This document shows, piece by piece, positions 4,018 to 22,031 of a DNA stretch of 64,000 bases. Each line of letters opens with the position of its first letter. The stretch's first letter is position 1. A program made the translations under genes and the position numbers. Source of the stretch: a virus (Duplodnaviria > Heunggongvirae > Uroviricota > Caudoviricetes); the IMG/VR virus record IMGVR_UViG_2681813233_000007; one strand, 5' to 3'. The notes beneath the pieces were generated by a model that was not told the origin of the DNA, did no database searches, and saw only the letters and a program-made list of their open reading frames with translations.

Positions 4018-4385
4018 TGACCATCTCTGTTTTAGACCGCCTGAAATTAGGTAAAGAGCTATCAGATCTAATGCAGGCGCAGAAAACTGCGCCAGTATTG
4101 CAACGCGTCACCATTGGTAAGCAGATTGTTGATGTGATGCTGAAATTGGGCCTGGGGACTGCCGCGCAACCGGCAGCGGAACCGCAACAACAGGCTGATC
4201 CTGTTGTAGATGAAGTCCCTAAGATAGTGACTGACTTCCTGGGCGGTGTGTTCACAAAGTCCACACAAATGGAATTTATTGATGCGCTGCGTGGGATCTC
4301 AAACTATGTTGGCGAGTTCCTTACGTTGGAGCAGGCTAAAGAGCAGACCATAAGCTGGGTGAAAGCTAACGGTTATGCCGGGTAA
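4017..4385 (+). CDS. Hypothetical protein (DdrA-like position)
   Basis: 122 aa; ATG overlaps the upstream stop. Confidence 0.4.
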   Translation: MTISVLDRLKLGKELSDLMQAQKTAPVLQRVTIGKQIVDVMLKLGLGTAAQPAAEPQQQADPVVDEVPKIVTDFLGGVFTKSTQMEFIDALRGISNYVGEFLTLEQAKEQTISWVKANGYAG

Positions 4386-4467
4386 TCAAAAGGGGCTGAA
4401 ATGCCCCTTTCACTTATCTGTTCTCACATAAATCACACACTTTTTACACTCACAGCTTTCTCTATAG

Positions 4468-5865
4468 TTGGAGTGTATTTTGAACAAATCAGTTACTTCT
4501 GCGCTTTCCGAGGCCGCAGATATTAACAGCGTCATTGCTCTGGTTTCTTCATTAGAGAGGAAAGAAACACGCCTGGGGCGAAGTAGCTACGTAGTCACCA
4601 GCAAAGGTGCAGAGGTAAAGACGGCTTTTAAGGTCGTTGATGCCAGCAGTCTGATCATTTCGAACAACCTTGACGGTACGATTAACCCGGCCTTCCCGGA
4701 AGAACTCCAACCACGAGATCGTACCCGGCTATCCAGCAAACTCCAGGTTAACCGTATTGCCTCCAATTTACGCCCGGCACAATTAACGGATTCCGGTATG
4801 AGCAGCCACGGAGCGCCTATAGTTGGTCCGGACAACGTTGTTGAATCCGGCAACGGAAGGAGTATGGGTATCTGGCGTGCCTATGAGCAAGGACAGGCGG
4901 ATGAGTATCGCCAGTACCTGATCGACCATGCGAAAGAGTTTGGTCTGAATCCTGACGAAATTTCGCAAATGTCTATGCCCGTACTGGTGCGAGAAAGACT
5001 CACAGATGTAGACCGCGCTCAATTTGCCCGCGATTCAAACATTAGCGATCTGCAAGAGATGGCAGCAAGTGAAAAAGCGTATGCGGATGCGCAATTTCTC
5101 ACTGAGAGCGTCATGGCGCTATTTAATCCTTCAGATGATGGAAATCTGCTGGCGCGGTCCAATGATGCGTTTATTCGTGCGTTTTTGCGCGAAATTGGCG
5201 ATACAGCGACGGCAGGCTTGCTTACTGCCGATGGGCGTCCCACGAAACAGCTTATCGATCGCATCCAGAATGCAATTTTTGCCAAAGCGTACAAGGATGA
5301 AAGGCTTGTTCGGCTGGTGTCGGAAGAGCCAGATCCGGAAATGCGTAATATCCTGACCGCATTAAATACGGCAGCCAGCGATTTTGCGCAAATGCAGTCG
5401 CTGTCTGGCGACGCTCACCATGACGCAGTAACAGGCTTAGTGGACGGTATAGAGCAGGTTAATGGCCTGGATACACAGGCGATAGCAGCACTCCAGGAAG
5501 CAATTAATCTTGTACGTGAAGCCAAAGACAACGGTCAGGCCGTTGAAGAAGTGATCGCCCAAAGGGGGTTATTCGGCGACAGTACACCGGAAGCTGAGGC
5601 ATTGGCGCTATTCATCGTAGCAAATAATCGCAGTGCGAAGCGTATGGGGGCAGCATTCAAAAAAATGGCGCAAAAAATCAACGACGAGCTGACTCATAAA
5701 CAACAGGCATTGGGCGATATGTTCGGCGGTGGCGATGTTGATCTGCGTCGTATTTTGTCTGCTGTATCTGATGAAATTGAGGGTGAATTTGGCGAAGGGA
5801 AAGGTCTGAACTTTGCTATGTTTGAAAATTCTACGGATCTAAATAATTGCCGTACGGAAAACTAA
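4468..5865 (+). CDS. Hypothetical protein, probably virion/antirestriction-associated
   Basis: 465 aa ORF; track start is TTG, true start uncertain (possible TTG at 4480 after GGAG). Confidence 0.4.
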   Translation: MECILNKSVTSALSEAADINSVIALVSSLERKETRLGRSSYVVTSKGAEVKTAFKVVDASSLIISNNLDGTINPAFPEELQPRDRTRLSSKLQVNRIASNLRPAQLTDSGMSSHGAPIVGPDNVVESGNGRSMGIWRAYEQGQADEYRQYLIDHAKEFGLNPDEISQMSMPVLVRERLTDVDRAQFARDSNISDLQEMAASEKAYADAQFLTESVMALFNPSDDGNLLARSNDAFIRAFLREIGDTATAGLLTADGRPTKQLIDRIQNAIFAKAYKDERLVRLVSEEPDPEMRNILTALNTAASDFAQMQSLSGDAHHDAVTGLVDGIEQVNGLDTQAIAALQEAINLVREAKDNGQAVEEVIAQRGLFGDSTPEAEALALFIVANNRSAKRMGAAFKKMAQKINDELTHKQQALGDMFGGGDVDLRRILSAVSDEIEGEFGEGKGLNFAMFENSTDLNNCRTEN

Positions 5866-5929
5866 ACCAACCGCTGAAATCACATACTGATTATGCTGCC
5901 GCAAAACTGGAAACGATTTGCGGTGATTC

Positions 5930-7612
5930 ATGGCAACGAAAGACAAAAACAAAGGCTTTCTGTCAGCATTGAAGAAAGCCTTCAACGGTGGTGATGTTAC
6001 GCCCGCCGATCCGGTCGTTTTTACGAGCGGACATAGTGTCGTTGCTCGTTCCGGCCTGTCTGCTTTACGTCCAGGCATCCTGGGGAGCAATAGCGATGGC
6101 ATGACGAGTGAGGCAGATTCAATTTCTTTATCCGCTGAACTGCCCGGCGAGCGCCTGCAAAAGTACAACATCCTGGAAACGATGGCTAAAAGCCCGACTA
6201 TCTCGACGGCTTTAAACATTCACATTGCACATGCGCTTGCGCCTTCAAAAAAAACCGGACAGGCATTCATCCTTTCGCCAAAGGATGGTTCCGATGCCGA
6301 GGCAGTAAGTAGATGTGAAGAGTTAACCGCTGATTTGGGGGCGATGATTAATGACGGACTTCCTTCATGGGCCATGATCATGGCGATCTTTGGGGTGTCT
6401 TATGTCCGACCTTATGCTGAACAGGGCAGGGGGATAACAGGCATTGAGTCCAGTTATTACACTCTGCCACATTTCGTCCAGGAATTTTATCGCGGTAGCC
6501 AGCTGGTTGGATTCAGTGGTGATTACATCCTGGATACGCATAGTTTGCGCAGAGTAATAACCGAACCGTGGAATCTGGTTTCCATGAAAAATCCCTATTG
6601 GACGCCACAGCATAAAGTTATTCCGGTTAGCTACGGCACAAAAGGGTACTCACTGTTAAGTGAGCAGGCTGATAAGCCGTTAATGGAGACGCAGAATTAC
6701 GGAACTTCATTCCTGGAATACAGCTATGAACCTTACCTTAATTTATGTGCTTCGCTCGCCGCGCTGAAATCAACGCGAAATAATGCAGCCAAAATTGACC
6801 GCCTGATTGCTCTTACGACGAACACACTGGACCCGGTTAATGCGGCGAACTATACGCGTGGCGTCAGCCAGGCATTGAAGCGTCATAGTGACCTGGTGGC
6901 GCAAAGGTCGATTAATGCCAACGCTATTCCGACTGTGCTTAACCATCTGATACCTGTTATGGGAGACGGGAAGAACGGCATCACCATTGATACGCAATCC
7001 ATACCCGCAGATATCAGTGGTATCGAAGACGTTATGTTTCACCTCCGGCAGCTTGCTGCAAGCCTCGGCATTGACGCAACAATGCTTGGCTGGGCTGATC
7101 AGATGAGCGGAGGGCTTGGAGAAGGCGGCTGGCAGCAAACTGCTATCCAGGCTGCATTGCGTGCGAACTGGATCAGACAGGCCGCCCAGCGAACTATTTA
7201 TCGGCTTCTGGACATTCACCTCGCTTATAAATACGGCAAGGTTTACACCGAAACAAACCGCCCTTATGACGTGCAATTCAACTCAATGAACACTGCTATC
7301 CAGGAAGAGGAAAACCGGGAACTGGATGCACGCGCCAACTTTGTTGCTGTCATCTCCCAAATTATGGACCAGATCCAGAACAACCCGAAACTGGCTGGTA
7401 GTGACGCGTTTATGCGTTATCTGTTCACTGAGCAGTTGCACATCGACGATGACACTCTCAACACCATGATCAAAGAGTTTAAGGCGAATGAATCAGAGCA
7501 AAACAACGAGCATGGTATGTACGAATCCGCGCCGTTGTCGTCCGGTGACGATCCGGAAAACTGGACGCCAGAACAGTTAATAAACTTTGCAAAATTTGTG
7601 ATGAGCAATTAA
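5930..7612 (+). CDS. Putative portal protein (Prt-like)
   Basis: 560 aa, portal-sized, immediately followed by a protease-sized ORF; assignment by size and synteny. Confidence 0.4.
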   Translation: MATKDKNKGFLSALKKAFNGGDVTPADPVVFTSGHSVVARSGLSALRPGILGSNSDGMTSEADSISLSAELPGERLQKYNILETMAKSPTISTALNIHIAHALAPSKKTGQAFILSPKDGSDAEAVSRCEELTADLGAMINDGLPSWAMIMAIFGVSYVRPYAEQGRGITGIESSYYTLPHFVQEFYRGSQLVGFSGDYILDTHSLRRVITEPWNLVSMKNPYWTPQHKVIPVSYGTKGYSLLSEQADKPLMETQNYGTSFLEYSYEPYLNLCASLAALKSTRNNAAKIDRLIALTTNTLDPVNAANYTRGVSQALKRHSDLVAQRSINANAIPTVLNHLIPVMGDGKNGITIDTQSIPADISGIEDVMFHLRQLAASLGIDATMLGWADQMSGGLGEGGWQQTAIQAALRANWIRQAAQRTIYRLLDIHLAYKYGKVYTETNRPYDVQFNSMNTAIQEEENRELDARANFVAVISQIMDQIQNNPKLAGSDAFMRYLFTEQLHIDDDTLNTMIKEFKANESEQNNEHGMYESAPLSSGDDPENWTPEQLINFAKFVMSN

Positions 7613-7625
7613 CCGGAGGGAAATA

Positions 7626-8624
7626 ATGCAATCACTGAATACTGTTACGGATCGCTTCTCCCTGGTAGAGAAAATCCGCAAACACACACCGCAGAACAAC
7701 CGAAATTATGTCATTCAGTCGGTACGAGACACATTCAACTCGCCAGAAACAAAAGAGCGTATCGCGCTGGGTGAGATGTATGGTTATTACGGTCATGGTC
7801 GCCGGGCGATGCACTATAACAAAACGAAAAGCCTGAACTTGCCGGAAGTCTCTGTTGTGATGGTAGATGGGAAGCCTGTTGTATTGGAGAACGTGCCGTC
7901 AAACAGGACTATCGACATTTCGATTGACGACAACGGCATTGTTACGCATACGCAGGAAATACTGGATACAGACACCGGGCGTATTGTTCAGGGCATGATT
8001 AATTCTGGTGCTGGTGGTTGGTCGTGGGCTACATCTGGTCCAGATTCATCGGTATCCCTGGTAAAGTCTTTCCACGGCTTTGATTACGTAACTGTGCCTA
8101 ACTATATCAGCCTCGACAAGAAAAGCCTGATGCTTGAATCAGCAGAAGAGCGCGATGCGGCTATTCATGCAGCACTTATCGAACAAGGTTTTACCGATAA
8201 CGCTGCTACGGATCTGGTTCACCACTTTTCAGCAATGAAAAATCAGCAAGCCATGCTCGAATCTGCACATCGTGAAGCCCTGGAATCAGAATTGATGCTC
8301 CTTGAAGTGGAAAACATACAGCTTCGAGATAAGCTGCGCGCTCAAACAGCGATGATGGAAAGCCAGGGGGAAAATGCAAAGCAATGCCGCCGGATTTTGC
8401 GTGACGCTATCCAGGAAATGCCTGTTTTTATCAGCGCAGAACAGCGCCGGGCGCTCTGCCGTATGCAGTCTGAAGATGATGCCCGCATAGTGGCTGCGAT
8501 GCTTGAATCTCTTGGGGCAAATGCTACTTATGGCTTACCGGTATCAGGCAAGAAAGAACCAGAGTTATCACCGAAGGAGAACAAAAACACCACCCCGTTA
8601 CTCTTCGTTTCTAGAAGGGGGTAA
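7626..8624 (+). CDS. Putative prohead protease/scaffold (Pro-like)
   Basis: 332 aa directly after the portal-like ORF; coiled-coil C-terminal half. Confidence 0.35.
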   Translation: MQSLNTVTDRFSLVEKIRKHTPQNNRNYVIQSVRDTFNSPETKERIALGEMYGYYGHGRRAMHYNKTKSLNLPEVSVVMVDGKPVVLENVPSNRTIDISIDDNGIVTHTQEILDTDTGRIVQGMINSGAGGWSWATSGPDSSVSLVKSFHGFDYVTVPNYISLDKKSLMLESAEERDAAIHAALIEQGFTDNAATDLVHHFSAMKNQQAMLESAHREALESELMLLEVENIQLRDKLRAQTAMMESQGENAKQCRRILRDAIQEMPVFISAEQRRALCRMQSEDDARIVAAMLESLGANATYGLPVSGKKEPELSPKENKNTTPLLFVSRRG

Positions 8625-8824: not shown

Positions 8825-9787
8825 GTGAGTATTTTAAATTCAGTTTCAGTAACTTTCAACACTTCTGAGTATAAAAACAACACTGAATACCACAAAAAAA
8901 TCAAAGGTCATCAGTTGAGTTTTTTTGCTCGTCATAGCGGTCTTCTTTCCCCTTCACATAGCGCCATTATTGCCGAGTTCGCCAACCTGGCAGGGTCTAC
9001 CGATGAATACATGATCCGTCGCTCATATGCTGATATGTCCGAGATTACAGGACGCAGCATTTCTACTGTGCGCCGGGCATTTGCTGAAGCGACGAAGTGC
9101 GGAATGCTTGTTAAGCAACATCAGGTAGCGAATAACAATGCCCAGGTGTGTAACGTATATCGGTTTACGACACAATTTCTCCACTTCATTCATGTAGCAA
9201 TGGAGATAGGGGGTAAGCAGGGCATCAAATTTGCCAACGCCACAAAGCTGGTTAAGCAATTGATTTCAAAGGTACGTTATTTTTTTGAAACTGGGACCCC
9301 CCTGTTCAAATTGAACAAGTCCCCCCATGTTCAATTTGAACAGCCAATAGAAAATAAGAGTCACTCTATAGCCAAAAGAAGAGAAAGATCATGCGCGGTT
9401 CAGCCAAAGGCTTCACCAGCAGATAGTTCTCAAGCGGATAATGGGGGACTGGATAAAAAAACAGTAATCAGGGAAGAACATACCAACCACTGCCTGGCGG
9501 CGGCAAAAGCGAGAGCTGCAAAGCGTCGTTCAGACGAGGGGCACGCAAAACGGCAGGCTCTGTATCGTACCGCTGAAAAGCTGGCAAAAAAATTTGCATG
9601 GATACGTAGTGCCGCTACCGCAGTGAATAAGCCTAAACAATCCAGTGCCCTGGATTTCTCAATGGATTATTCTGGCTCCCAGGGGTGTGCAACCATTGGT
9701 GAAGCCTTTGACCTGATGAAACAGCGTGGCTATCTGTCTGAATTTGACCGTGAGGATTGGTCAATCCCTGCGGGATTTAGGGGATGA
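8825..9787 (+). CDS. HTH DNA-binding protein, possible KilA/RepL-region homolog (lytic replicon candidate)
   Basis: 320 aa; HTH-like segment MSEITGRSISTVRRAFAEA; internal inverted palindrome pair at 9304-9343; GTG start uncertain. Confidence 0.35.
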   Translation: MSILNSVSVTFNTSEYKNNTEYHKKIKGHQLSFFARHSGLLSPSHSAIIAEFANLAGSTDEYMIRRSYADMSEITGRSISTVRRAFAEATKCGMLVKQHQVANNNAQVCNVYRFTTQFLHFIHVAMEIGGKQGIKFANATKLVKQLISKVRYFFETGTPLFKLNKSPHVQFEQPIENKSHSIAKRRERSCAVQPKASPADSSQADNGGLDKKTVIREEHTNHCLAAAKARAAKRRSDEGHAKRQALYRTAEKLAKKFAWIRSAATAVNKPKQSSALDFSMDYSGSQGCATIGEAFDLMKQRGYLSEFDREDWSIPAGFRG

Positions 9788-10200: not shown

Positions 10201-10425
10201 ATGGTTAATGCCAATCCTTGCTCACGTCCAGAATTCATCTGGCGTTTCCACTCCCTGCAAAAACACTGCGATCACTTCGCAATTGCCGCAACCGAAAAAG
10301 AAGCCCGTTCTCTGATCCCTGATCAGTATGGTGTTCTTACTGGTCGTTTCTCTACTTCCCCACAACCAAACACTAATCCCTGGTATCGCAATATTACCAA
10401 TCCCGGAATTGCGGAGGCACACTGA
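10201..10425 (+). CDS. Icd-like small protein (copy 1)
   Basis: 74 aa, motif EFIWRF(H/Y)S.QKH shared with the paralog at 49445; directly upstream of the Ant-like gene as in P1 immI. Confidence 0.5.
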   Translation: MVNANPCSRPEFIWRFHSLQKHCDHFAIAATEKEARSLIPDQYGVLTGRFSTSPQPNTNPWYRNITNPGIAEAH

Positions 10426-11132
10426 TGGAAATCTGCATTCTTGAAAAGCCATCAATGACCAGCATTGAGATCGCGGAGCTGGTGGGAAGTCGCCCGGATA
10501 ACGTTAAACGCACTATTGAACGCTTGAGTAAATCAGGTGTTATTCCACTTCCTCCAATGGAGGTTTCCGAAAATATCAATAACTTAGGATTTAAAGTTAA
10601 AAATTCACACTACGTCTTCGAAGGCGAGCAAGGCAAGCGTGACAGTATCATTGTCGTTGCGCAGCTTTCTCCCGAATTCACCGCCCGGCTGGTGGACCGC
10701 TGGCGCGAACTGGAAGAACAAGTACGCCAGCCGTTGACCGAAATAGAGATGATCGCCGCAATGGCTGCAAATGCAGTTCAGCAGCAAAAGCGGCTTCATG
10801 TTGTTGAGTCAAAGGTTAGCCAGGTGGTAGAAACCGTCGAGCAAATCAAGAAGGGCAACATGCCGGAAGGCTACATTGGCTACCGCCAGCTGGCGGCGAA
10901 ATGTGGCCTGACTGAAGCCAAATGCCGAAACCTGGTCAACGCTTACCGGATTCCCACCGATACACATGAGTTTTTAACTCCAGAGGGGGTATTGTCGCGT
11001 CGTTCCATCGTGGCCTTATCTCCCTTCATGAATGCTTTTAACCGGATGATGTCGGAGGCTGAACACCGAGGAAAACGCTGGTATCACCCCAAAATGGGGC
11101 AATTCCAGGTGATCGGTTGGGGAGGTGAGTGA
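10425..11132 (+). CDS. Antirepressor-like protein (Ant/KilA-type), copy 1
   Basis: 235 aa; N-terminal MTSIEIAELVG..DNVKRTIE shared with the 313-aa paralog at 49660. Confidence 0.55.
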   Translation: MEICILEKPSMTSIEIAELVGSRPDNVKRTIERLSKSGVIPLPPMEVSENINNLGFKVKNSHYVFEGEQGKRDSIIVVAQLSPEFTARLVDRWRELEEQVRQPLTEIEMIAAMAANAVQQQKRLHVVESKVSQVVETVEQIKKGNMPEGYIGYRQLAAKCGLTEAKCRNLVNAYRIPTDTHEFLTPEGVLSRRSIVALSPFMNAFNRMMSEAEHRGKRWYHPKMGQFQVIGWGGE

Positions 11133-11337: not shown

Positions 11338-11362
11338 GCCCCGGCCTGGCCGGGGCTTTTTT
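11338..11362. terminator. Bidirectional terminator hairpin GCCCCGGCC-TGG-CCGGGGC plus T-run
   Basis: Perfect 9/7-bp GC stem with TTTTTT; nearly the same hairpin recurs after the second ant copy. Confidence 0.6.
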
Positions 11363-11847
11363 CATGCCTCATTAGTTGAGGTTGCTGCGTCTCCGACTGG
11401 TAACAGAGCGGTATTGCGTGGTTCGCCAGCAGGCCAGCGATAGCCAGACACTCTTGATGTTGGGAATGCGCGAATATTAACCGCATCCCCCTGGTTCCCA
11501 CCCAGGACAAGCAGATCGCCATTGGCGCGGCGTCCGACAACGAAGCCTACGTGCCCACCGCCTACGCGGGTAAATACAACGATACATCCGTATGCCGGTG
11601 TATCTAATTTCTCGCCCCAATCCAGATAGGATTTTGCCGACTCAAATCTTGTTGAGCGGATGCCTACACGTTCCAGCATTGCACCGACAAATGCTGCGCA
11701 CCACGGCGTTTCATCGTCTTTAATTCCGCCGCGCTTGATGTCGCGCCAGAACTGAACGATTTCAGGGTTGTGTTTAGCGCCTTTTATTTCAGTCAGGCCA
11801 ATGTGCTTACGGGCTTCAATTAGCCAGCGAGGTTCAATGTTTGCCAT
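11362..11847 (-). CDS. Cell-wall peptidase-like protein (NlpC/P60- or CHAP-like Cys/His hydrolase)
   Basis: 161 aa; conserved Cys (TPWCAAFV) and His (GGHVGFVVG) in the typical spacing. Confidence 0.5.
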   Translation of the reverse strand: MANIEPRWLIEARKHIGLTEIKGAKHNPEIVQFWRDIKRGGIKDDETPWCAAFVGAMLERVGIRSTRFESAKSYLDWGEKLDTPAYGCIVVFTRVGGGHVGFVVGRRANGDLLVLGGNQGDAVNIRAFPTSRVSGYRWPAGEPRNTALLPVGDAATSTNEA

Positions 11848-11996
11848 ATTTTTCTCCCGGTCATGGGTTAATAAGTAGGCAAACTATGGGGAGTATGTGA
11901 TTTTGACGGTAGTATCGTCCCCTGAAAATAACATTCTCCATACCCTCTCAACCGTACCGCATAGCGGAATTTTTACGGTTTAGAGGGGGAAATCCT

Positions 11997-14900
11997 TTGG
12001 ACAAACTACTTTATTCAATCAGTGAAGCCTCCAGCTTAGGCGAACTGATTGAAATTGTTAGTCGGTTGCATAAATTACGTGCTGTTGCGACCTTTGGCGT
12101 CAGGAAAGCCGATGGCGTCAGTATTCAGAAAACACGTCGTGCAGCAAACAATGCCGCAGTAAATCTTCTTAATTCCCTTCCGCCCGGCTTCGATGGGGCG
12201 AAATTAACTGACGAACAACGTCAGATTCTTGCCGGGTATACCGGTGAAGGCGGCCTGACAGATGGTGAGGGCAGCCAATACGAATACTACACGCCACAGT
12301 TTATGGCTGAAGGTATATGGGATCTGTTTGCTGACTACGGTATTGATGGCGGGCACGTACTGGAACCATCAGCGGGCACAGGTATTTTCCAGGAGACAAA
12401 ACGGCAGGGCATGATAATGACCAGCGCCGAACTGTCTCCGATTTCTGGTCGAATAAACCAGCTTTTGCACCCGGAAGACGATGTGAATATCGGGGCGTTT
12501 GAGGCGCTGGCGGCGAAAGATGCAATGTATGACCACGCTGTTGGTAACGTACCGTTTGGTGAAGGGCGTTCCGGCGTCGCCGGTCTTGATCCGGCATATG
12601 CAAACGAGAAGAACGTTGGCAATTACTTTGTGCTGCGCACGATCGACAAGGTTAAGCCTGGTGGGCTTATCGTATTGGTGGTGCCGAATGGCATGACTGA
12701 TGGTACGAAATACAAAAAATTGCGCGATAAAGTCAGCCGTAAAGCGGAATTTTTGGGCGCGCATCGTATGCCTTCCGGTACGTTCAGTGAATCAGGTACA
12801 GATACCGTGGTGGACGTATGGGTATTGCGTAAACACCCGGAAGCCTTCCTGGAGATGATCCCCGATACGGATGATTCGACGCTCAAATCGGCAAACGTCC
12901 TTTGGGATACCTTCCTCAAAGGAAAATGGTTTACAACCGAAGGGAAGCGATTTGTTTACGGCGACATGGAACGTACCAGCTTCCGCAATACCCTGGTGGT
13001 GAAAAAAGACGGTCGTGTATCCAATGAGTCGATGAAAACCGCGCTATCTCGTCGCTTTGATAGTCGCATCAATTGGGATTTGCTCGGCGTAACTACTCAG
13101 GCATGGCAGGGCGCGAAAGTGGGCGATAAACGCCTTGTAGGCGGTATCTGGCATGAGTTTGATGGTCTGAAATGGGTTAAGGACACGACAACCAAATCCT
13201 CCGCGCTTGATGTAAGTCGATATGGTGTTTCGACGTTTGGCGATCTGCAGATCGCGTTCCAGTCAACAAACGGGATTCTGGCTTTGTCATGGGACCAGAT
13301 ATCGGCGATCGCGTCCGACTATCCATCGGTTGTCAGTGATGAAGTGGCAGCAATGATTCGCTTTGCTGGCAAGCAGCGAGAAAAAGACAGGGAGCGCGTT
13401 ATGCGCGGTGCACTGATAGGTCAGTTGATCAACAAGGCACTTGATTTGCGTAACCTGGGGGTGAACGTTGATGACAAACTGGCAGATGCATCCCGCCTGG
13501 CGGCAGCAGAAGTTGCGAAGTATGGACCACCGCACGCGATTAAGCTGAATGGGCTTGCTGAAGCTGGCGCTAAAAACTGGATGACGTTCACTGGCAATGT
13601 GAAACAGGATGGTTCCACTTCTGACCTTCTGGCAGGGCGACTTGATGTAACGGATGGTGCTGCCGGTATTGACTTTACGCGTCCTGAACAAGTGATAGCA
13701 CATCTTTTTAGTGATGTAGCCCTTAATCCTATAACGCTGGGCGACTTTCGTGAGGCGTTTGCTGGTGAACTGCCAGAGGACGACGACGCGGCCCTTGAAT
13801 ACCTGGCGAAATTTGATGATATCGCTATTGATGGGTATGGCTGTCTGCTGCCGATGGACCGCGCCACCAGCGGCGATGTTGCAACCAAAACAGCACTGCT
13901 GGTGGGTTGGCGTGATGCGTCAACAGGTGAGCAGAAAGCGAACTTTGAGCGTCAGTTGGCGAAAATCGAAGAGAAACGCATTTTCACGCCACTAAATAAA
14001 GTCACCGTTAATCTGAACGCCCGCTGGCTGGATCGCCGCTTGATAAAAGAGTTCCTGGCAGAGCAGGGCTATGACGAGTTTAAGTACACTGAACCTGATC
14101 TGAAGGTCGTCGATGGCATTCTGGTATCTCCGGACGATTACGAAGGTAAGGACGGGGTATTTACCGGCTATCAGCTACGAACCGTAAACGGCAAAAACGG
14201 GAATGAGTTCAAGAAGGCCAACAATAAAGACGGCTTCCTGAACCAGTTAGAAAACTACCTGAACGGTGTTAAACCGCGTGGGCAGAACGCTAACGAGTAC
14301 CTGGATAAAATTGCTCAACTGGAAGTTAGCTTTAACGACTGGTTACGCACTCACCCGCAGGCTGATCAGATAGCCCGCGAGTATAACGACGCATTCAATG
14401 GTTTCATTCCGTTCACGCATTCTGACGCACCGCTTGGCCTGGAAGGGATTAGTGGAAAGCGCATTCCTCTGACTTATCAGAATGAAGAAGTTCGGCGCTT
14501 GTCAGAAGATGGGCGCGGCATCATGGGATTTGGTACCGGGCTGGGTAAAACCACGACCGCGCTTGCGCTTGAGGCGTATAACTTCGAAACAGGTCGCACT
14601 AAACGCACGTGTATTGTTGTTCCGAAGGCGGTTTATCAGAACTGGTATCACGAGGCACAGAGTTTCTACAGTGCTGATGCCTTCGCCAATATGATGTTTA
14701 TCGGTTTGGATGAAGTTCGTGATGACAGCGGAAATATTCTGACCGCGCCGGTGCTTGATGAAAATGGCGAACCACGCCTCGACAGTAACGGGCAGCCTCT
14801 TACCAGAAATGTTGTGAAAGAGTCCGCCAGCGCCGTTATCGTTCAGCGCATGAACATGATCCCGTCGTCAAATTGGCGAACGGTCATCATGACAAAAGAA

Positions 14901-17900
14901 CAATTCGCGTCTATCCCGCTACGAGAAAAAACCATCGAGGAGAACTCACAGCAAGCTGTCTTTAATGCTGTGGAAATGGGGCGTCTTGACCTGGCGTCTG
15001 GCAAACACCGTGATGCACAGAAGAAGAACAAGATTAAGGATCAGGCCGCGAATACCGGTACAACGAAGAAGCAGAATATCCCGTACTTTGAGGATATGAA
15101 CTTCGATAGCGTGATTGCCGACGAGGGGCATAACTACCGCAACTCCTTTAATGCCGGGCGTGAAGCGGGACAACTGGCATATTTGCCTAACCCGGCAGTA
15201 TCCAAGATGGCCCGCGACATGGCTGTAAAAGCTGCGTACATGATGAAACGCAACAACGGACGTGGTGTAGTCATGCTGACGGCAACTCCGCTGGTGAACA
15301 GTCCGATTGATGCCTTCAACATGCTGTCTACTGTCATTCCGCAGGAAGAGTGGATGCGCATGGGCATCATTACGCCTGATGATTTCGTTCGTGTGTTTGG
15401 CAAAACAGCCACAGTTCAGGTCCAGAAAATTTCCGGGGAAGTGGAAGAGAAGCAGGGGCTGGTGGGCTTCCAGAACCTTGACGGCCTGCGTGGTATTTTC
15501 CATCGTTGGACCACTCTGAAGACTGCTGCAGATGTCGGAGCGACGGTTAAAATTCCCGACATCATTGAGAACACCTTGCAGATCCCGATGACAGGGGAGC
15601 AGGAGACTGCTTATGAAGAGCTTCGTAAGCGTGCTCAGGAGTTAAGTCGCAATGATGAGCTGACAGTCGATGAAAACGGGCATATCACTAACGACAAACC
15701 AGATGATTTCATCTTCTCCATCATCCGTGACATGGACAAGGTTGCTATAGACCCGGATCTGTATGCCAGTGCGATTACATTCCAGTTCCCCGTTGAGCTT
15801 GCAGACCAGGTAAAAGCTATTGCTGATGCCTTGCCAAAAGTAGCTGGCGGTAAAGTGGCAGATGATGTTGATGAGGCCGAGGAAGACGGCGCTGGCGGGC
15901 TGGTCAGTACGCGTACCAGCAAGGTAGTGAAGACCGCTTTTAGTGAACATCCGACGCATGTTGAAATACGTGCCAGCATTGAACTGGAAGCTGAAATACT
16001 GAAGGCCATTGCGGCTGCCGGTATTGATATGCAGCAGGTATCGCACCCCATCCCGCCGAAGTATGCCGCGCTGATCGAAAATCTTCGTGAAGGTCTGAAG
16101 AACGGTAAGCAGATCGTCTTTATTGATGAAAAAGCCCAGCACCAGAAGCTGCGCCGTATTATCGCCAGTGCACTGCAAATGCCGGAGCAGGAGATTGGCA
16201 TTATCAATGCGACGACAGTTAGCCAGGCTGGCGGCATCAAGCTGAAGAAGGTGAATAAGCCGACCGAACCTACTCCAAACAAAAACGGTGAATACAAAGA
16301 AGGGGCATGGGAAACCTACTACAGCAAACTTGCACAATATGAGGATTATCTCTCAGCTAAAAATGATGCTGGCCTTGAGGGCATGGAAGGTATTGCCGCC
16401 GACTATAACGAAGGTCGCACGCGCATCATAATCTGTAACAAGAAGGCTGAAGTAGGTATTAACCTGCACATCGGGACAACCGATATCCATCACCTGACAC
16501 TACCCTGGACACCAGCCAGTATCGACCAACGAAATGGGCGCGGTGCGCGCGTAGGTTCACCGCAAGAAAAGGTCAATGTTCACTACTATTGTGGCAAAGG
16601 CACATTCGATGACTTCCGTCTGGATACGCTGAAACGTAAGAAAGACTGGATCAAGATGGTGATGACATCCGACATGTCAGAGATCGCCAATGGTGATGCG
16701 GATGATGCTGATGAACGCGCCATTATGCTGGCGGCAAACCCGGAAGAACGCCGCGCAATCATGGCTCGCCAGGCGCAAGTGCGTGAAGAACGTCTGAAAC
16801 TGAAAGCACAGCGCGAGGCCAACAATGCTCTCGATATCTACCTGAAAGCGGCAAACGCCGCCGGAAAAGATATCGGCATGATGGAGACAGAACTGAAAAG
16901 CGCGATGGAACAGATAGAGTATTACCAGCGCAATCTTGACGACCTGATAAAAGCGGGTACGAACAGGAATGGGCAAAAATACGCGCTTGAGCAGTTGAGT
17001 AGCTACAGAAAACGTGCGCGGGTGCTGCGGTTTGCGATCACCAGGGCAAAAGACGCGGATACCATAATGAAACGCTCTCGTGGTGATGTGGAGCGCGCTA
17101 TTAAGTCTGGTGTGCTGGATATCAGTATCGATGTTATTCAGAACCCACAGGAATATATGCGCACTGACAAGAATATCCTGTTGCATAAAGGTAGTTATTA
17201 CCGTGCAGTCATTGATGATCGCGAAACAACAGCGATTGTCCGGGTGGAAAAAATTGACGGTGAAAAAGCACAATACATCTGTCGTATCGCCTGGCTGGAT
17301 AGAGCAAGTCGTTACGCTCGATCACCGGGGTCAATCGTTACATTGCCGTTTGACTCTGTGATTGAAGCGGTAACTTTTGAAGAGGGGGTTGCTGAATCGC
17401 GCGCAACGGCTGCGCGTGGTGTTCAGTGCCACCAGCTATCAACAATACTTACTCGCGATCAGTTCTATGATGCTATTCGCAATGGGGTAATGAATGTTAT
17501 TGCTGGTAAACCTGGTAATGCATGGGGCGGTGGATCAGCTATTAAATACTGGGCATATCGCACAGAAGATGGTCAGATCGCGCTGTCATCGGCCTATGAT
17601 GGCGTGATAGGCCAAAAAATCGGGCGAGCATCGGATATAGCACCTGAACGATGGATATATCCTGATGGCAACGACGAGGCGCTGAAGCGTGAAGTGGCAA
17701 AAATACAAGCCAGTGATAACCCGCTGAATATCGTGGACGGAGAGGGATTCCTCCAGGCATTGTATGGGTATGATTACATCCAGGGAATGCAGGCATGGGG
17801 CGCACAGGCAACGATGGATGATGTTGCCAAGGAGTTCGAAAACTGGATGGCTGGGCGTGGTCTGTCAGGTCGTTCGCTTAATAAAGTCACTTCTGAAGAT

Positions 17901-18833
17901 ATTCTTAGCTTGTTCCGTAAACCGTCCGGAGAAGGTCTGGAATCATTCTGGAGGACCGTGCTGGCATACCGTTTATTCCAGGGCAGGATGAAAGCCTTTA
18001 GCAATATCGATGATATTGAACGGATGTTTAATCAGGTCAAGATCGCGAAAATTAAGGCGAAGATCGAAAAAACACGTTCTGCGCTGGTGGCCTGGCGCGA
18101 TGCATTGTTTGAGCAATATAAATCACTCAGTGATGCAGATGGATGGGCGGCGCTGGAACAGTTGACGAATAATGGGGTAGATGGGGCGAAACTCGCCATT
18201 GTCCAGGCTGATAACCCCCTGGAATCACCGGCAGCACAGTGGATTAAGGTGGGGGCTGTCATCAATGCATTTGATGAAAAACACATTAGTAAGGACGATT
18301 TTGCTGATGCTGTTTCTGTTAATCGCCTGGTAGAAATGGCTACCCGCCGCGCCCGTGAGTTGAAAGATGGCGACTATGTGAATGAGTTGCCGGATACGCT
18401 CAAATCGGCAACGTGGCAGGACTATGTATCGCTGAAAAACGGCGGGGCCACTGAATCAGAGATCGCGGAAAGGCTTGAGCAGGCTGAAAGCAAAAGAGAA
18501 GAGCAGGCGGCAGTGGCTGAAGCCAGAGCTGATGAAGCGGCAAATGATGACTATATCATTGTGGTTAATGATAAGCCTATTCGCGCTAAGGCGCGTGTTC
18601 GCGGGCGCTGGTGGAGCGTCAGCGAGGACGTTGGCGCGGTTTATCTCATTGCCGACCAACCAGGTTCCTCGACAATACGGAACGCCAAAGACGCGATTAA
18701 GAAGATTGGCGGGCGTTTCTGGAATTTTGAAGTGAATCCGGTCGCGGATGTGGACTTTGACCGTCCGGCGTGGATGGTATCTACGCGTTACTCGGTAGAT
18801 GAACTGCGTAAAATAATCGCCGATGCGGCTTAA
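11997..18833 (+). CDS. darB: DarB-like giant antirestriction protein: N6-adenine methyltransferase fused to SF2 helicase
   Basis: 2278 aa; SAM motif VLEPSAGTGIF, NVPFG (NPPF-like), helicase Walker A GFGTGLGKTT and DEGH box; size matches P1 DarB. Confidence 0.85.
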   Translation: MDKLLYSISEASSLGELIEIVSRLHKLRAVATFGVRKADGVSIQKTRRAANNAAVNLLNSLPPGFDGAKLTDEQRQILAGYTGEGGLTDGEGSQYEYYTPQFMAEGIWDLFADYGIDGGHVLEPSAGTGIFQETKRQGMIMTSAELSPISGRINQLLHPEDDVNIGAFEALAAKDAMYDHAVGNVPFGEGRSGVAGLDPAYANEKNVGNYFVLRTIDKVKPGGLIVLVVPNGMTDGTKYKKLRDKVSRKAEFLGAHRMPSGTFSESGTDTVVDVWVLRKHPEAFLEMIPDTDDSTLKSANVLWDTFLKGKWFTTEGKRFVYGDMERTSFRNTLVVKKDGRVSNESMKTALSRRFDSRINWDLLGVTTQAWQGAKVGDKRLVGGIWHEFDGLKWVKDTTTKSSALDVSRYGVSTFGDLQIAFQSTNGILALSWDQISAIASDYPSVVSDEVAAMIRFAGKQREKDRERVMRGALIGQLINKALDLRNLGVNVDDKLADASRLAAAEVAKYGPPHAIKLNGLAEAGAKNWMTFTGNVKQDGSTSDLLAGRLDVTDGAAGIDFTRPEQVIAHLFSDVALNPITLGDFREAFAGELPEDDDAALEYLAKFDDIAIDGYGCLLPMDRATSGDVATKTALLVGWRDASTGEQKANFERQLAKIEEKRIFTPLNKVTVNLNARWLDRRLIKEFLAEQGYDEFKYTEPDLKVVDGILVSPDDYEGKDGVFTGYQLRTVNGKNGNEFKKANNKDGFLNQLENYLNGVKPRGQNANEYLDKIAQLEVSFNDWLRTHPQADQIAREYNDAFNGFIPFTHSDAPLGLEGISGKRIPLTYQNEEVRRLSEDGRGIMGFGTGLGKTTTALALEAYNFETGRTKRTCIVVPKAVYQNWYHEAQSFYSADAFANMMFIGLDEVRDDSGNILTAPVLDENGEPRLDSNGQPLTRNVVKESASAVIVQRMNMIPSSNWRTVIMTKEQFASIPLREKTIEENSQQAVFNAVEMGRLDLASGKHRDAQKKNKIKDQAANTGTTKKQNIPYFEDMNFDSVIADEGHNYRNSFNAGREAGQLAYLPNPAVSKMARDMAVKAAYMMKRNNGRGVVMLTATPLVNSPIDAFNMLSTVIPQEEWMRMGIITPDDFVRVFGKTATVQVQKISGEVEEKQGLVGFQNLDGLRGIFHRWTTLKTAADVGATVKIPDIIENTLQIPMTGEQETAYEELRKRAQELSRNDELTVDENGHITNDKPDDFIFSIIRDMDKVAIDPDLYASAITFQFPVELADQVKAIADALPKVAGGKVADDVDEAEEDGAGGLVSTRTSKVVKTAFSEHPTHVEIRASIELEAEILKAIAAAGIDMQQVSHPIPPKYAALIENLREGLKNGKQIVFIDEKAQHQKLRRIIASALQMPEQEIGIINATTVSQAGGIKLKKVNKPTEPTPNKNGEYKEGAWETYYSKLAQYEDYLSAKNDAGLEGMEGIAADYNEGRTRIIICNKKAEVGINLHIGTTDIHHLTLPWTPASIDQRNGRGARVGSPQEKVNVHYYCGKGTFDDFRLDTLKRKKDWIKMVMTSDMSEIANGDADDADERAIMLAANPEERRAIMARQAQVREERLKLKAQREANNALDIYLKAANAAGKDIGMMETELKSAMEQIEYYQRNLDDLIKAGTNRNGQKYALEQLSSYRKRARVLRFAITRAKDADTIMKRSRGDVERAIKSGVLDISIDVIQNPQEYMRTDKNILLHKGSYYRAVIDDRETTAIVRVEKIDGEKAQYICRIAWLDRASRYARSPGSIVTLPFDSVIEAVTFEEGVAESRATAARGVQCHQLSTILTRDQFYDAIRNGVMNVIAGKPGNAWGGGSAIKYWAYRTEDGQIALSSAYDGVIGQKIGRASDIAPERWIYPDGNDEALKREVAKIQASDNPLNIVDGEGFLQALYGYDYIQGMQAWGAQATMDDVAKEFENWMAGRGLSGRSLNKVTSEDILSLFRKPSGEGLESFWRTVLAYRLFQGRMKAFSNIDDIERMFNQVKIAKIKAKIEKTRSALVAWRDALFEQYKSLSDADGWAALEQLTNNGVDGAKLAIVQADNPLESPAAQWIKVGAVINAFDEKHISKDDFADAVSVNRLVEMATRRARELKDGDYVNELPDTLKSATWQDYVSLKNGGATESEIAERLEQAESKREEQAAVAEARADEAANDDYIIVVNDKPIRAKARVRGRWWSVSEDVGAVYLIADQPGSSTIRNAKDAIKKIGGRFWNFEVNPVADVDFDRPAWMVSTRYSVDELRKIIADAA

Positions 18834-18869
18834 CAGATAAGGAGCGGCCCCAACCGGGGCCGAATTTGA

Positions 18870-19304
18870 ATGACGACACTAATTGACACTGTAAAACCGA
18901 CGGAATCCTACCTTGAGGACATTTTGCCGCAGGCGCTCAATGGCAGGAGTGAAGAGGCGTTTCTGGATGCATATCTGAATGGCATGGTGGAAAGGCTGAA
19001 ACGAGATCCACAGCTTTATCACCTTTATGGGCCGTGGTGGCCTGCGCTTAAAACGTTATTGCTGGAGCGCGGCGACATATCATTTGGACAAGTTGTAGAT
19101 AGTGATGTGGCAGAGATCTACAAAATGAGTCGCCCGGCGCTTACGGTTTTGGCTGGGCATCTGTATTCGAGCGATCGCCTGGAAAATGACGCGGTATACA
19201 ATCCTGTTCATGCTCTGGAAGTCGCACCTTATGCCGATGATACAGAGCCATACGTGTACACAAGTTACGACGAGTCTATAGAGAAATATCGAATCATGGG
19301 GTAG
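18870..19304 (+). CDS. Hypothetical protein
   Basis: 144 aa ORF 36 bp after darB. Confidence 0.4.
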   Translation: MTTLIDTVKPTESYLEDILPQALNGRSEEAFLDAYLNGMVERLKRDPQLYHLYGPWWPALKTLLLERGDISFGQVVDSDVAEIYKMSRPALTVLAGHLYSSDRLENDAVYNPVHALEVAPYADDTEPYVYTSYDESIEKYRIMG

Positions 19305-19306
19305 CC

Positions 19307-19567
19307 ATGCGAAAGAATCGTAGGTTTACGGTCGAAGACCTAAAGGAATATTCCATATCGAAGGGGTATGTCCTTGAGTTCCACCGATACAAGAAGGTTT
19401 TTACGCTGCGAAAAGCAGAAAACCCCGCGAACTGGAGCTGGGTATACTTTCCTCACACCGATGATAAGTTGGTAGAACTTGTTGATGATTTAACCTATGA
19501 AGGTTGGTTGATCGCAATCGACAAGACAATCAAAGAATTATCCGAACAGGATAAAATAACCCTTTAA
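19307..19567 (+). CDS. Hypothetical protein
   Basis: 86 aa ORF, ATG 3 bp after the upstream stop. Confidence 0.4.
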   Translation: MRKNRRFTVEDLKEYSISKGYVLEFHRYKKVFTLRKAENPANWSWVYFPHTDDKLVELVDDLTYEGWLIAIDKTIKELSEQDKITL

Positions 19568-19703
19568 AAATAACAGGTTGGGTAAATGCCATGCGATTTA
19601 CCCTCCTTGTTGATTAAGGTCACTCTTTACTCTAAAAGCAAATCCGACCTGTTGCATATAGACCATCCTTGAGTAGTATCTCTCTTGTTTTATAAATCTA
19701 ACG

Positions 19704-20198
19704 TTGTTGTTATTATTTCGCATATTTACTATCAATAGGTGTGTTAGAAAAATAGCGCGAAAGAGAAGGCGTCGCAGTGAATATTCTGAAACATCCCCAC
19801 ATGCCGCAGCTCTTAGAGAACTGGAGAAAAACCCAGATCTAATCAAAAGGAACCATGAGCATTACGAGCAGGTTCGCGTCCTGGACTGGTTGTATCGCAA
19901 TATGCGTTATGTGTATGAGCATACTCACGCCACTCCAAACGGTGGCCTGCGAGGCATAAGGACGGCAATAAAAATGGTGGCAGAGGGCCAAAAGAAGGGA
20001 TATCCCGATCTTTCTATAGACCTTGCTTGTGGGGGATACCACGGAATGCGCATTGAGATGAAACATGGGAGAAATCGCCTGACTCCCGAACAACTCGTCT
20101 GGATGACCCGCCTCACTGAAGCCGGTTACTACTGCTTTGAGGCGCGCAGTGCCGCTGAAGCCATAAAAGCTATCACGGAGTATGTTTGTCTTGATTAA
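19704..20198 (+). CDS. VRR-NUC-like (PD-(D/E)xK) nuclease domain protein
   Basis: C-terminal GYPDLSI...GGYHGMRIEMK resembles the VRR-NUC signature; track start is TTG, start uncertain. Confidence 0.45.
   Translation: MLLLFRIFTINRCVRKIARKRRRRSEYSETSPHAAALRELEKNPDLIKRNHEHYEQVRVLDWLYRNMRYVYEHTHATPNGGLRGIRTAIKMVAEGQKKGYPDLSIDLACGGYHGMRIEMKHGRNRLTPEQLVWMTRLTEAGYYCFEARSAAEAIKAITEYVCLD
19741..19758 (+). promoter_or_regulatory. Operator-like motif GTGTTAGAAAAATAGCGC
   Basis: Motif family member; lies inside the track ORF 19704, so the true start of that gene is probably downstream. Confidence 0.4.
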
Positions 20199-20212
20199 AC
20201 GGAGAAATCGTT

Positions 20213-20413
20213 TTGCGTTTACTTAACGTGGCAGAACTTATCCCTGCAGGAACTAATGCTATCGCTCGTCGTCGCTCATGGCAGCAGGCTCTATGTATTG
20301 AGATCTCGAAACGTATCAATGGAAGTTTTGAAGCTCGCAATATTGTTACTGGCGATAAGGTTCACATAACCCCGGAAAGTGCAAGCGCTGATGATTGGGA
20401 GTTTGTGCATTGA
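20213..20413 (+). CDS. Small hypothetical protein
   Basis: 66 aa ORF in operon context. Confidence 0.3.
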   Translation: MRLLNVAELIPAGTNAIARRRSWQQALCIEISKRINGSFEARNIVTGDKVHITPESASADDWEFVH

Positions 20414-20709
20414 GCAAAAAATATCATGTGAGTCTGGCGTTCGCTGACGATGCGGGGAGGACGCGGAGTATCACGTTGAGCACGCCGGTTAAGGCTGTGA
20501 CAGCGCCGTTAATCCGTGAAGCTCTCAGAGAGCTGGAATTGGGGGAAAACTCGGCACTGTTGTCGGTTAGTTGGTTAGGGAAAATGTCAGAGAAACAATA
20601 CGTGGATGGAGTTACCCCAATAACAGTAATGAGGCTACTTTCATTGCTGCAATGGGCCATCGTACCTGTATTTATCGCGTATCTTATTTATCAGGCTGCA
20701 ACACAGTAA
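20395..20709 (+). CDS. Hypothetical protein with C-terminal TM helix
   Basis: 104 aa; hydrophobic C-terminus; followed by a terminator. Confidence 0.3.
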   Translation: MGVCALSKKYHVSLAFADDAGRTRSITLSTPVKAVTAPLIREALRELELGENSALLSVSWLGKMSEKQYVDGVTPITVMRLLSLLQWAIVPVFIAYLIYQAATQ

Positions 20710-20715
20710 TTGCAT

Positions 20716-20745
20716 AAAAACCCGCCAATTAGCGGGTTTTTTGTT
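20716..20745 (+). terminator. Rho-independent terminator
   Basis: CCCGC-caatta-GCGGG hairpin followed by TTTTTT. Confidence 0.7.
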
Positions 20746-20783
20746 TATTGCATCTTCCGATACCGTCATCAAACTAATAAAAT

Positions 20784-20801
20784 ATGTTAGAAAACTAATT
20801 T
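20784..20801 (+). promoter_or_regulatory. Operator-like motif ATGTTAGAAAACTAATTT
   Basis: Identical 18-mer recurs inverted at 48627-48644; immediately upstream of the 20808 gene. Confidence 0.55.
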
Positions 20802-20807
20802 AACAAA

Positions 20808-22031
20808 GTGACGGGAACAGCAATGAGTCAACACACTGATACTTCTAATCTGGAAATTATCTCGACAGCAATTGAAACGCTGCGCACACAAATCGCTCTT
20901 ATACAGAAACGGAATCCGGGTGATGACCTGTCAAAGCGACTGCACGAGAGTGTCATTGCCACTACAGATAACCTGGTGGCGGAAATCAACAAGCTGCTTG
21001 ATGATGGGGCAGTTGATTACAATAAGCTGGTGGATCAGTTTGAGGAATACCAACAAGCCGTTAATGATGGCTTGATCCGTTTTTCACAAGTCACAGGCGT
21101 ATCAGCGACAGTTGAAAGCCTAGGTGATGCAGTTAATCAATTTGCCGCGAATATGCGTAATGAGATCGGCAATCTGGAAGCGCGTCTTGAACAGGCAAAT
21201 ACACTGCGTAAATCTGCCGAAGCCGATTTGAACCGTTACAAAAAAGACTATCCGCCAAGCCTGACAAAGCGGCTGGATGTTGCGGAGAAGGATAACCGCA
21301 CGCTGAAAAGAGAGCGCAGGGAACTAAAAGAGCGTTTAACCAAGCTCAATCAGCAATGCATTGATTATCAAGGCGAAGGCGTCACACTGCGTAAAAAGTT
21401 GGCTACAGCGCAGAGCATTATCGAAACATTAAAGCGAGAGTGCTCACAGCTTGGTCACGATCTGAACCGTGCTTGTGGCATGGGACAAAGACCAGAGACA
21501 TTTCCACTCATGTATGATGGAAGGGATGCCATTGCCTACATCCATGAGTATCCGCACGGCCTGGTTGCGGAAACAGGGCAGCGTGGCGAAGCACTGTTGA
21601 CGGCTAATTACCATCAACAAATCAGAACCAATCGCCTGTTAACGATGGATGTGATCCCATCGGTATGGGGAACGCCGCTTTACTATCGCCTGCCGGGCTT
21701 CGAAAAGGACTGGAATACCGACATAGACGAATGTCTCGCAGATAAAATTATGGCGTACCTGGAGACGGATTTTCCGCGCTTATATCGCCGGATTATGGAC
21801 TCTAAGGATGCGCCAATCGATGAATTAAAAATGCGTCCGGAGACGCTGGAGGCAATCAAGCAGACGGAGTTTGATACTGTATTCAGTGTGGCCTGCATTC
21901 CAAGCTGTTTCCATGAAAGCATCCCGTTCATGCAAGGAGATCGTCGTCAGGAAATCATTGACGCTTGCCGGGTATGGGCGAACGAATGGGATAAGAAGAA
22001 TGGGGGTGTAGAAGATCTTTATGGGAAATAA
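20808..22031 (+). CDS. Hypothetical protein, N-terminal coiled coil
   Basis: 407 aa ORF downstream of an operator-like motif; no recognised domain. Confidence 0.45.
   Translation: MTGTAMSQHTDTSNLEIISTAIETLRTQIALIQKRNPGDDLSKRLHESVIATTDNLVAEINKLLDDGAVDYNKLVDQFEEYQQAVNDGLIRFSQVTGVSATVESLGDAVNQFAANMRNEIGNLEARLEQANTLRKSAEADLNRYKKDYPPSLTKRLDVAEKDNRTLKRERRELKERLTKLNQQCIDYQGEGVTLRKKLATAQSIIETLKRECSQLGHDLNRACGMGQRPETFPLMYDGRDAIAYIHEYPHGLVAETGQRGEALLTANYHQQIRTNRLLTMDVIPSVWGTPLYYRLPGFEKDWNTDIDECLADKIMAYLETDFPRLYRRIMDSKDAPIDELKMRPETLEAIKQTEFDTVFSVACIPSCFHESIPFMQGDRRQEIIDACRVWANEWDKKNGGVEDLYGK

Follow-up and report, generated by a model that had tools for sequence, protein, structure and literature searches.

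The open reading frame (ORF) at positions 11997-18833 on the + strand of the DNA analysed here (the window, the whole 64-kb stretch from virus record IMGVR_UViG_2681813233_000007) is very probably the D6-lineage orthologue of darB, the antirestriction gene of phage P1. From sequence comparison, it stands within a complete Dar gene set, is carried on a D6-type plasmid prophage and would serve a P1-type antirestriction mechanism. As for the window, it is an E. coli plasmid prophage, P1-like and of the D6 type. The evidence lies in the full-length alignment of the encoded protein with P1 DarB, in its catalytic motifs, and in the partner genes that surround it in the same two blocks as in P1.

The darB orthologue is one uninterrupted ORF of 2278 amino acids (aa) that begins with TTG, a few bases downstream of a Shine-Dalgarno-like AGAGGGGGA. 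This start is credible because residue 1 of the protein and residue 1 of P1 DarB open the alignment between the two. With BLASTP, one collinear alignment 2372 columns long covers the protein and P1 DarB (YP_006479, 2255 aa) at 40% identity, and MAFFT gave 43%; the collinearity runs from end to end and takes in the C-terminal module. P1 DarB has the same collinear architecture, with every catalytic motif kept, despite the 40-43% overall identity. The catalytic cores are the best-conserved parts (55-68%): identity to P1 is about 55% in the methyltransferase core and 57-68% in the helicase, against 29-46% in the linker (aa 300-800) and 18-26% in the last ~680 aa. PHROG 1685 also matches the protein end to end.

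From the N terminus, the protein comprises an LPD36-like region with GEGG at aa 83, a methyltransferase, a linker (about aa 300-800), a helicase and a C-terminal module (about aa 1600-2278). The motifs of a gamma-class N6-adenine methyltransferase (YYTP at 97, EPSAGTG at 123 and NVPF at 184) and those of a SWI2/SNF2-type helicase (GTGLGKT, the Walker A motif, at 846, DEGH at 1042, TATP at 1095 and QRNGRGAR at 1511) are all present, and every diagnostic motif from GEGG to QRNGRGAR lies at a position equivalent to that in P1 DarB. The signatures that define the family were therefore found in full: an LPD36-like region joined to a gamma-class N6-adenine methyltransferase (GxG[GAS], TP cap, motif I, N-x-P-F/Y), with an SNF2-type superfamily 2 (SF2) helicase, its ATPase motifs intact, on the C-terminal side. 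They fit the LPD36-methyltransferase-SWI2/SNF2 'dyad' by which Iyer et al. (2017, PMC5512222) describe DarB. Among Pfam models, SNF2-rel_dom (aa 840-964, 46.8 bits), ResIII (aa 826-1047) and Helicase_C (aa 1464-1520) scored above their cut-offs, whereas N6_Mtase (aa 152-281) reached 20.2 bits against a cut-off of 20.4, with an Eco57I-type match likewise weak. A phmmer search of the PDB with the whole protein returned marginal matches only, to a type I methyltransferase subunit (E 9e-4) and INO80, and an AlphaFold model of aa 1-820 was too poor for use (predicted local distance difference test, pLDDT, 64).

Homologues of the other Dar proteins lie on both sides of darB:
687-1459, + strand: lydA and lydB together, at the head of the dar operon as in P1
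from 687, + strand: lydA (holin), 43% identity to P1 LydA; D6 orf30
from 1013, + strand: lydB (antiholin), 34% identity to P1 LydB; D6 orf29
1434-2069, + strand: hdf orthologue, 211 aa as listed; D6 orf28 is annotated with a slightly later start
2023-4017, + strand: darA orthologue, 664 aa as listed; the equivalent of the D6 start is at about 2062
4017-4385, + strand: ddrA orthologue, 122 aa, 33% identity to P1 DdrA (E 2e-23)
4468-5865, + strand: short ddrB, 465 aa against 995 aa in P1, 64% identity to P1 DdrB aa 2-442
18870-19304, + strand: ulx orthologue, 144 aa, 46% identity to P1 Ulx (E 7e-45)

All six P1 Dar components (Hdf, DarA, DdrA, DdrB, DarB and Ulx) are thus present in two blocks. 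Hdf is 39% identical to its P1 counterpart over 144 aa (E 9e-31) and DarA 38% (E 3e-139); DarA in addition scores 1128 bits against a cut-off of 350 with the NCBIfam model NF052326, 'antirestriction phage head protein DarA'. Ulx, encoded directly after darB as in P1, matches phrog_1629, 'Ulx-like anti-restriction' (E 2e-59); Table 1 of PMC9024508 gives P1 Ulx as a virion protein that aids DarB localisation. The exception to full correspondence is DdrB, which is the ParB-like N-terminal half of P1 DdrB only and not the full-length protein with a ParB-like part and a C-terminal zincin metallopeptidase; the two lineages differ in this, which does not exclude the set from the Dar system. The domains of P1 DdrB were assigned in PMC5512222, where the C-terminal zincin peptidase half is proposed to process DdrB. 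We considered D6 orf24 and orf23 as remnants of the lost half and rejected them, as they show no similarity to it and lie on an insert absent from the window.

The genes between the two blocks are as follows:
5930-7612, + strand: portal gene (prt), 50% identity to P1 Prt; D6 orf22
7626-8624, + strand: prohead protease gene (pro), 42% identity to P1 Pro; D6 orf21
8825-9787: repL-like gene
10201-10425: icd
10425-11132: ant/Roi-like gene
11362-11847, - strand: gene for a CHAP-domain peptidoglycan hydrolase, divergent from darB; Pfam CHAP 31.4 bits

A 66-aa ORF lies between the ant/Roi-like gene and the CHAP hydrolase. The full order in the window is therefore cin(-), lydA, lydB, hdf, darA, ddrA, ddrB, prt, pro, repL, icd, ant, orf, CHAP hydrolase(-), darB, ulx, orf, pmgM, orf, pmgR, pmgS. 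In P1, with darB placed on the + strand, it is cin(-), lydC, lydA, lydB, hdf, darA, ddrA, ddrB, hxr; then isaB, IS1, isaA, ssb, lyz, lydD, lydE; then pro(-), prt(-); then darB, ulx, lxc, mod, res. Both phages have the same two Dar blocks, hdf-darA-ddrA-ddrB behind lydA-lydB and darB-ulx, in the same internal order and relative orientation, and in both the blocks are split by unrelated genes, ddrB ending 7.3 kb short of darB in P1 and 6.1 kb short of it in the window. What differs is the cargo. The prt-pro pair is co-directional right behind ddrB in the window, whereas in P1 it is inverted, divergent and abutting darB. The hxr/IS1/isaA/ssb/lyz block of P1 has its place taken by the repL/icd/ant module and the CHAP hydrolase, and where P1 has lxc and the EcoP1 mod-res genes after ulx, the window has an ORF and homologues of pmgM, pmgR and pmgS, whose P1 counterparts lie near 79-84 kb in P1. 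A tblastn search of the 64-kb window with P1 Lyz, LydC/D/E, Hxr, IsaB, Ssb, Lxc and Res gave no homologue. The CHAP hydrolase matches PHROG tail-lysozyme and endolysin families and sits roughly at the position of P1 Lyz; by sequence it is probably the endolysin of this lineage, in place of Lyz.

These results bear on a prediction made earlier from the DNA letters of this locus. Its proposal of a DarB-like protein, encoded by a single 2278-aa ORF that combines an N6-adenine methyltransferase with an SF2 helicase, is borne out by the one ORF, the Pfam helicase matches, the marginal N6_Mtase match with intact motifs, the full-length collinearity with P1 DarB and the flanking ulx and hdf-darA-ddrA-ddrB genes; the alignment to the six P1 proteins that it suggested as a check yields homologues of all six at 33-64% identity. 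It had also placed a DarA-like operon with portal and protease genes at 687-8624, about 8 kb from darB and separated from it by KilA/RepL-like, icd-ant and peptidase genes. The coordinates hold (7,980 bp from the end of darA to the start of darB), as do the intervening genes: repL-like, icd, ant/Roi-like and, on the - strand, the CHAP hydrolase. Where it went too far was in calling the antirestriction gene set rearranged: the surrounding cargo does differ from that of P1, but the Dar genes themselves keep the P1 blocks, order and orientation.

Comparison with public sequences showed how widely the locus occurs. Positions 1-24000 of the window are 99.9% identical in DNA to E. coli plasmids such as CP057047, and at least 80% of this region is present in one piece in 97 plasmid records. 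The darB ORF is 98.7% identical to orf15 of phage D6 (MF356679 / NC_050154) across 100% of its length, whereas in phage records other than D6 the match is a patch of at most 170 bp. In GenBank, D6 orf15 (ASR76325.1) carries the label 'defense against restriction; similar to P1 gene darB'. The two DarB proteins are both 2278 aa long, with the same TTG start and equal limits, and are 99.1% identical, with 20 amino-acid differences. The 90 nucleotide differences between the two genes are evenly distributed and comprise 69 synonymous and 20 nonsynonymous codon changes, from which we conclude that darB is under purifying selection. The D6 neighbours on either side of darB, from cin to pmgS, are identical to those of the window; D6, unlike the window, has a 1.05-kb AT-rich insert with two small ORFs (orf24, orf23) between ddrB and prt, and the remaining differences are scattered point differences. 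The insert site (about 5866-5929 in the window, against 5790-6930 of the D6 locus sequence) thus marks a moron-like indel inside the lineage. The D6 genome was reportedly described by Gilcrease and Casjens in 2018. The gene order of the window is that of the D6 genome and of at least 97 sequenced plasmids, a lineage trait that is already public and in no way peculiar to the window, and darB, its homology to P1 and its neighbourhood are already known from GenBank (D6, 2017-2018) and from roughly 100 plasmid prophages that have been sequenced. D6-like prophages have been the subject of a population study (PMC6799933), which describes their antirestriction module as one of P1 homologues and additional genes.

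The mechanism that we propose is modelled on P1. There, the head takes up six Dar proteins in sequence, from Hdf and DarA at the start to DarB at the end; they exit with the DNA and protect it solely in cis, with DarB, Ulx and DdrB required against EcoK/EcoB and DarA against EcoA (PMC9024508, PMC12810830, PMC12707154). A reporter is directed to the capsid by residues 1-30 of P1 DarB alone, of which residues 6-10 are critical (PMC9024508). By analogy, the D6-type DarB would be made in lytic growth. Once Hdf/DarA, DdrA and DdrB are in place, its first ~30 residues, aided by Ulx, would guide it into the procapsid, where tens of copies may be packaged. Once ejected, it would shield the accompanying DNA in cis from EcoK/EcoB-type (type I) restriction enzymes. 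The element has something to protect, since its 64 kb contain 6 EcoKI and 13 EcoBI target sites. In the proposal of Iyer et al. (PMC5512222), the methylase travels along the incoming DNA on the SNF2 motor. We adopt this model for the window DarB because the two catalytic cores are its best-conserved parts: the SWI2/SNF2 motor would ride the entering duplex while the gamma-class N6-adenine methyltransferase modifies or occludes target sites.

Several observations weigh against such a mechanism. The roles of the D6-type Dar proteins rest on homology and synteny, the experimental work being that on P1, and even in P1 the biochemical mechanism of DarB is described as undefined (PMC11109961, 2024), while the same study reports that EcoKI restriction can be relieved by plasmid-borne darB DNA independently of the protein. 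The Pfam N6_Mtase score falls just below its cut-off (20.2 vs 20.4), with the motifs nonetheless intact, and the 150 bp upstream of darB contain no P1-type late-promoter (-22) box. At the N terminus, 8 of the first 30 residues are common to P1 (M1, K3, L4, S12, S13, E16, R28 and A29), and residues 6-10, critical for capsid targeting in P1, read MGVFR there and YSISE here; because of this difference, the D6-type targeting signal may have co-evolved with its own, D6 capsid partners. Identity to P1 drops to ~20% in the final ~680 aa of DarB, so that target range or partners may differ. Finally, the C-terminal metallopeptidase half of P1 DdrB (HExxH, HELGHH) has no tblastn match at E<1 in either the window or the D6 locus.

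Three other explanations of the locus were weighed. DarB could be mainly a structural, internal head protein with vestigial enzymatic domains, antirestriction then coming from passive coating of the DNA. The head-morphogenesis roles of Hdf and DarA in P1 (PMC12810830) and the physical-occlusion hypothesis cited in PMC12707154 lean that way, as do P1 darB catalytic mutants, which leave the effect in a plasmid assay unchanged (PMC11109961), though that effect is DNA-mediated. We consider this improbable, as every methyltransferase and helicase motif has been kept at 40-43% overall identity and the cores, at 55-68%, bear the signature of selection on catalysis. The same plasmid assay raises a further explanation, in which the antirestriction linked to darB comes from its DNA: Chi and type I target sites would trigger ClpXP-dependent restriction alleviation, with the protein not needed. 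Such alleviation was shown for P1 darB fragments on pBAD plasmids (PMC11109961), and the window has 43 Chi sites against ~1.3 expected from shuffles, six of them in darB. However, the DNA-mediated effect needs a resident plasmid and acts in trans, while classical Dar protection is virion-dependent and acts in cis (PMC12707154); the Chi enrichment spans the whole element and is not specific to darB; and a 6.8-kb ORF kept intact under purifying selection argues for a function of the protein. We therefore give this explanation very little weight.

A protein that joins an SNF2 helicase to a methylase might also belong to a host or plasmid defence system of the DISARM, BREX or Dpd type, and the C-lobe of the helicase does give weak NCBIfam matches (30-44 bits) to DISARM DrmD, DpdE and a PLD anti-phage protein. 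The curated cut-offs (500-1100 bits) are over ten times as high, and the matches involve the generic helicase C-domain only. No DISARM, BREX or Dpd partner genes lie nearby, and the gene stands in the same company as in P1 and D6, syntenic with ulx, the dar operon and the portal, protease and scaffold genes. Membership of DISARM or Dpd was accordingly rejected on the scores, and we find a defence-system origin scarcely credible. An orthologue of P1 DarB acting within a Dar set remains the reading that we prefer.

The C-terminal module is the part of this orthologue that departs most from P1. Aligned alone, it is collinear with P1 DarB at 21.7% identity over 732 columns (E 2e-9), a homology that is weak but detectable. 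An exhaustive search of 1.84 billion cluster representatives with the last 679 aa returned only 27 clusters, in which the long matches are all C-termini of DarB-sized proteins (~1650-2300 aa) and the others are fragments; a word-indexed homologue search with the same 679 aa found relatives at 83% identity or more only. A few positions are conserved across the long matches, chief among them W-x-YPD-xx-DE-x-LK at 1886-1897. With good local confidence, AlphaFold models the module as long helical bundles with two small beta domains (pLDDT 84, predicted template modelling score, pTM, 0.44), and no recognisable fold relative was found for the ~680 aa. Among D6-like elements of E. coli and Salmonella, aa 1600-2278 (window 16794-18830) occur as alleles only 83-91% identical, against ~1% differences between the window and D6. 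Some database entries for this part are separate ORFs of 500-800 aa; this suggests that some plasmids carry a split or truncated darB.

The module is the most likely seat of a lineage-specific partner or target specificity. A bolder version of this idea is that the D6-type Dar set is a functionally distinct variant and not a drifted copy of that of P1, directed against other host defences (other type I families, BREX) or using another capsid loading route, with the C-terminal module as specificity determinant. The lineage-restricted, fast-evolving module, the non-conserved capsid-targeting residues and the DdrB without its metallopeptidase half speak for it; we put it forward tentatively, as a possibility that is rather unlikely.

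We also searched the region for expression signals. The P1 late box (AAGTNAYTW-N4-TANNNT) and looser forms of it have two or three matches in the window, which is the chance level. The box that precedes lydA (647-657) is not of this type but the palindrome ACTAAGTTAGT, which shows no significant recurrence. A sigma-70 scan found no convincing darB promoter; P1 darB is annotated only with a predicted sigma-70 promoter. The 5' leader of darB (11900-12010, + strand) is predicted to form a stable hairpin (11943-11988; -32.7 kcal/mol, z = -2.8, with 1/200 shuffles equally good) in which CCCUCUC (11943-11949) pairs with the Shine-Dalgarno region just 5' of the TTG; on this model, the hairpin may exert translational control of darB. 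By strand, the Chi sites (GCTGGTGG) of the window divide into 26 on + and 17 on -, with 4+2 inside darB and 6+5 in P1 darB; the enrichment agrees with the known Chi enrichment of P1.

Downstream of darB and ulx, five further genes follow:
19307-19567, + strand: 86-aa ORF, phrog_6844 (unknown function), where P1 has lxc
19704-20198, + strand: PmgM-like gene, 57% identity over 136 aa to P1 PmgM; VRR_NUC domain, Pfam 26.2 bits
20213-20413, + strand: 66-aa ORF with no named homologue
20395-20709, + strand: PmgR-like gene, 34% identity over 64 aa to P1 PmgR (E 3e-7)
20808-22031, + strand: PmgS-like head-morphogenesis/scaffold gene, 21% identity over its full length to P1 PmgS; phrog_1660 (E 1e-146)

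The original prediction left the six genes after darB without assigned function, which is wrong for four of them (Ulx, PmgM, PmgR-like and PmgS-like); only those at 19307-19567 and 20213-20413 are without a named homologue. Its VRR-NUC-like nuclease corresponds to the PmgM homologue, which falls in a PHROG 'Holliday junction resolvase' family, the P1 label being merely 'putative morphogenetic function'. The true start of pmgM may be downstream of the TTG, since a promoter-like site overlaps this codon and the P1 PmgM alignment does not begin before residue 29. In P1, pmgR is given as essential in PMC9024508, and the D6 annotation of the PmgS-like gene is a putative scaffold. The genes at 19704-22031 are thus of morphogenesis type and are not Dar genes. 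The 86-aa ORF starts 2 nt after the end of ulx and is for that reason probably the third gene of a darB-ulx unit; it was considered as Lxc or PmgL and rejected, having no similarity to either. A terminator scan found a strong terminator at 20716-20741 and a weaker terminator-like hairpin at 19580-19603, which suggests three units: darB-ulx-orf, pmgM-orf-pmgR and pmgS.

Elsewhere in the window, the Cin invertase (21-581, - strand) is 98.9% identical to P1 Cin, whereas its neighbours lydA, lydB, hdf and darA reach only 34-43%; the contrast between adjacent genes marks the cin/lydA junction as a sharp mosaic boundary. The lineage has two icd-antirepressor pairs, the repL-adjacent copy (10201-11132) with a Roi-like antirepressor and the second with a Rha/KilA-like one (D6 orf83/orf82, 18023-19179 of the D6 sequence). 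The P1 C1-operator consensus ATTGCTCTAATAAATTT has no match with up to 3 mismatches anywhere in the window, and the D6-type repressor must therefore bind a different operator.

Set against known systems, the window DarB has the methyltransferase-SNF2 dyad in common with a wider group of DarB-like polyvalent proteins, including those of Bcep22/BcepIL02, Ralstonia phages and Thermus phage Lalka27a. By tblastn, these non-P1-like proteins match only aa ~66-1610, at 25-34% identity, and those of the Bcep22, Ralstonia and Thermus phages are without the C-terminal 680-aa module and without P1-type partner genes. The remaining interest of the locus is comparative and lies in the short DdrB and in the divergence of DarB from P1 in its C-terminal module and targeting signal. 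D6-like phage-plasmids are common in E. coli and Salmonella, which makes their antirestriction equipment relevant to their spread. As the mechanism of DarB is still undefined, chimeras between P1 and D6 could show which parts set restriction-system specificity and which serve packaging. The two phages offer a pair of Dar sets at ~40% identity in which the catalytic cores have been kept, while the C-terminal third of DarB, the targeting residues and the peptidase half of DdrB differ sharply.

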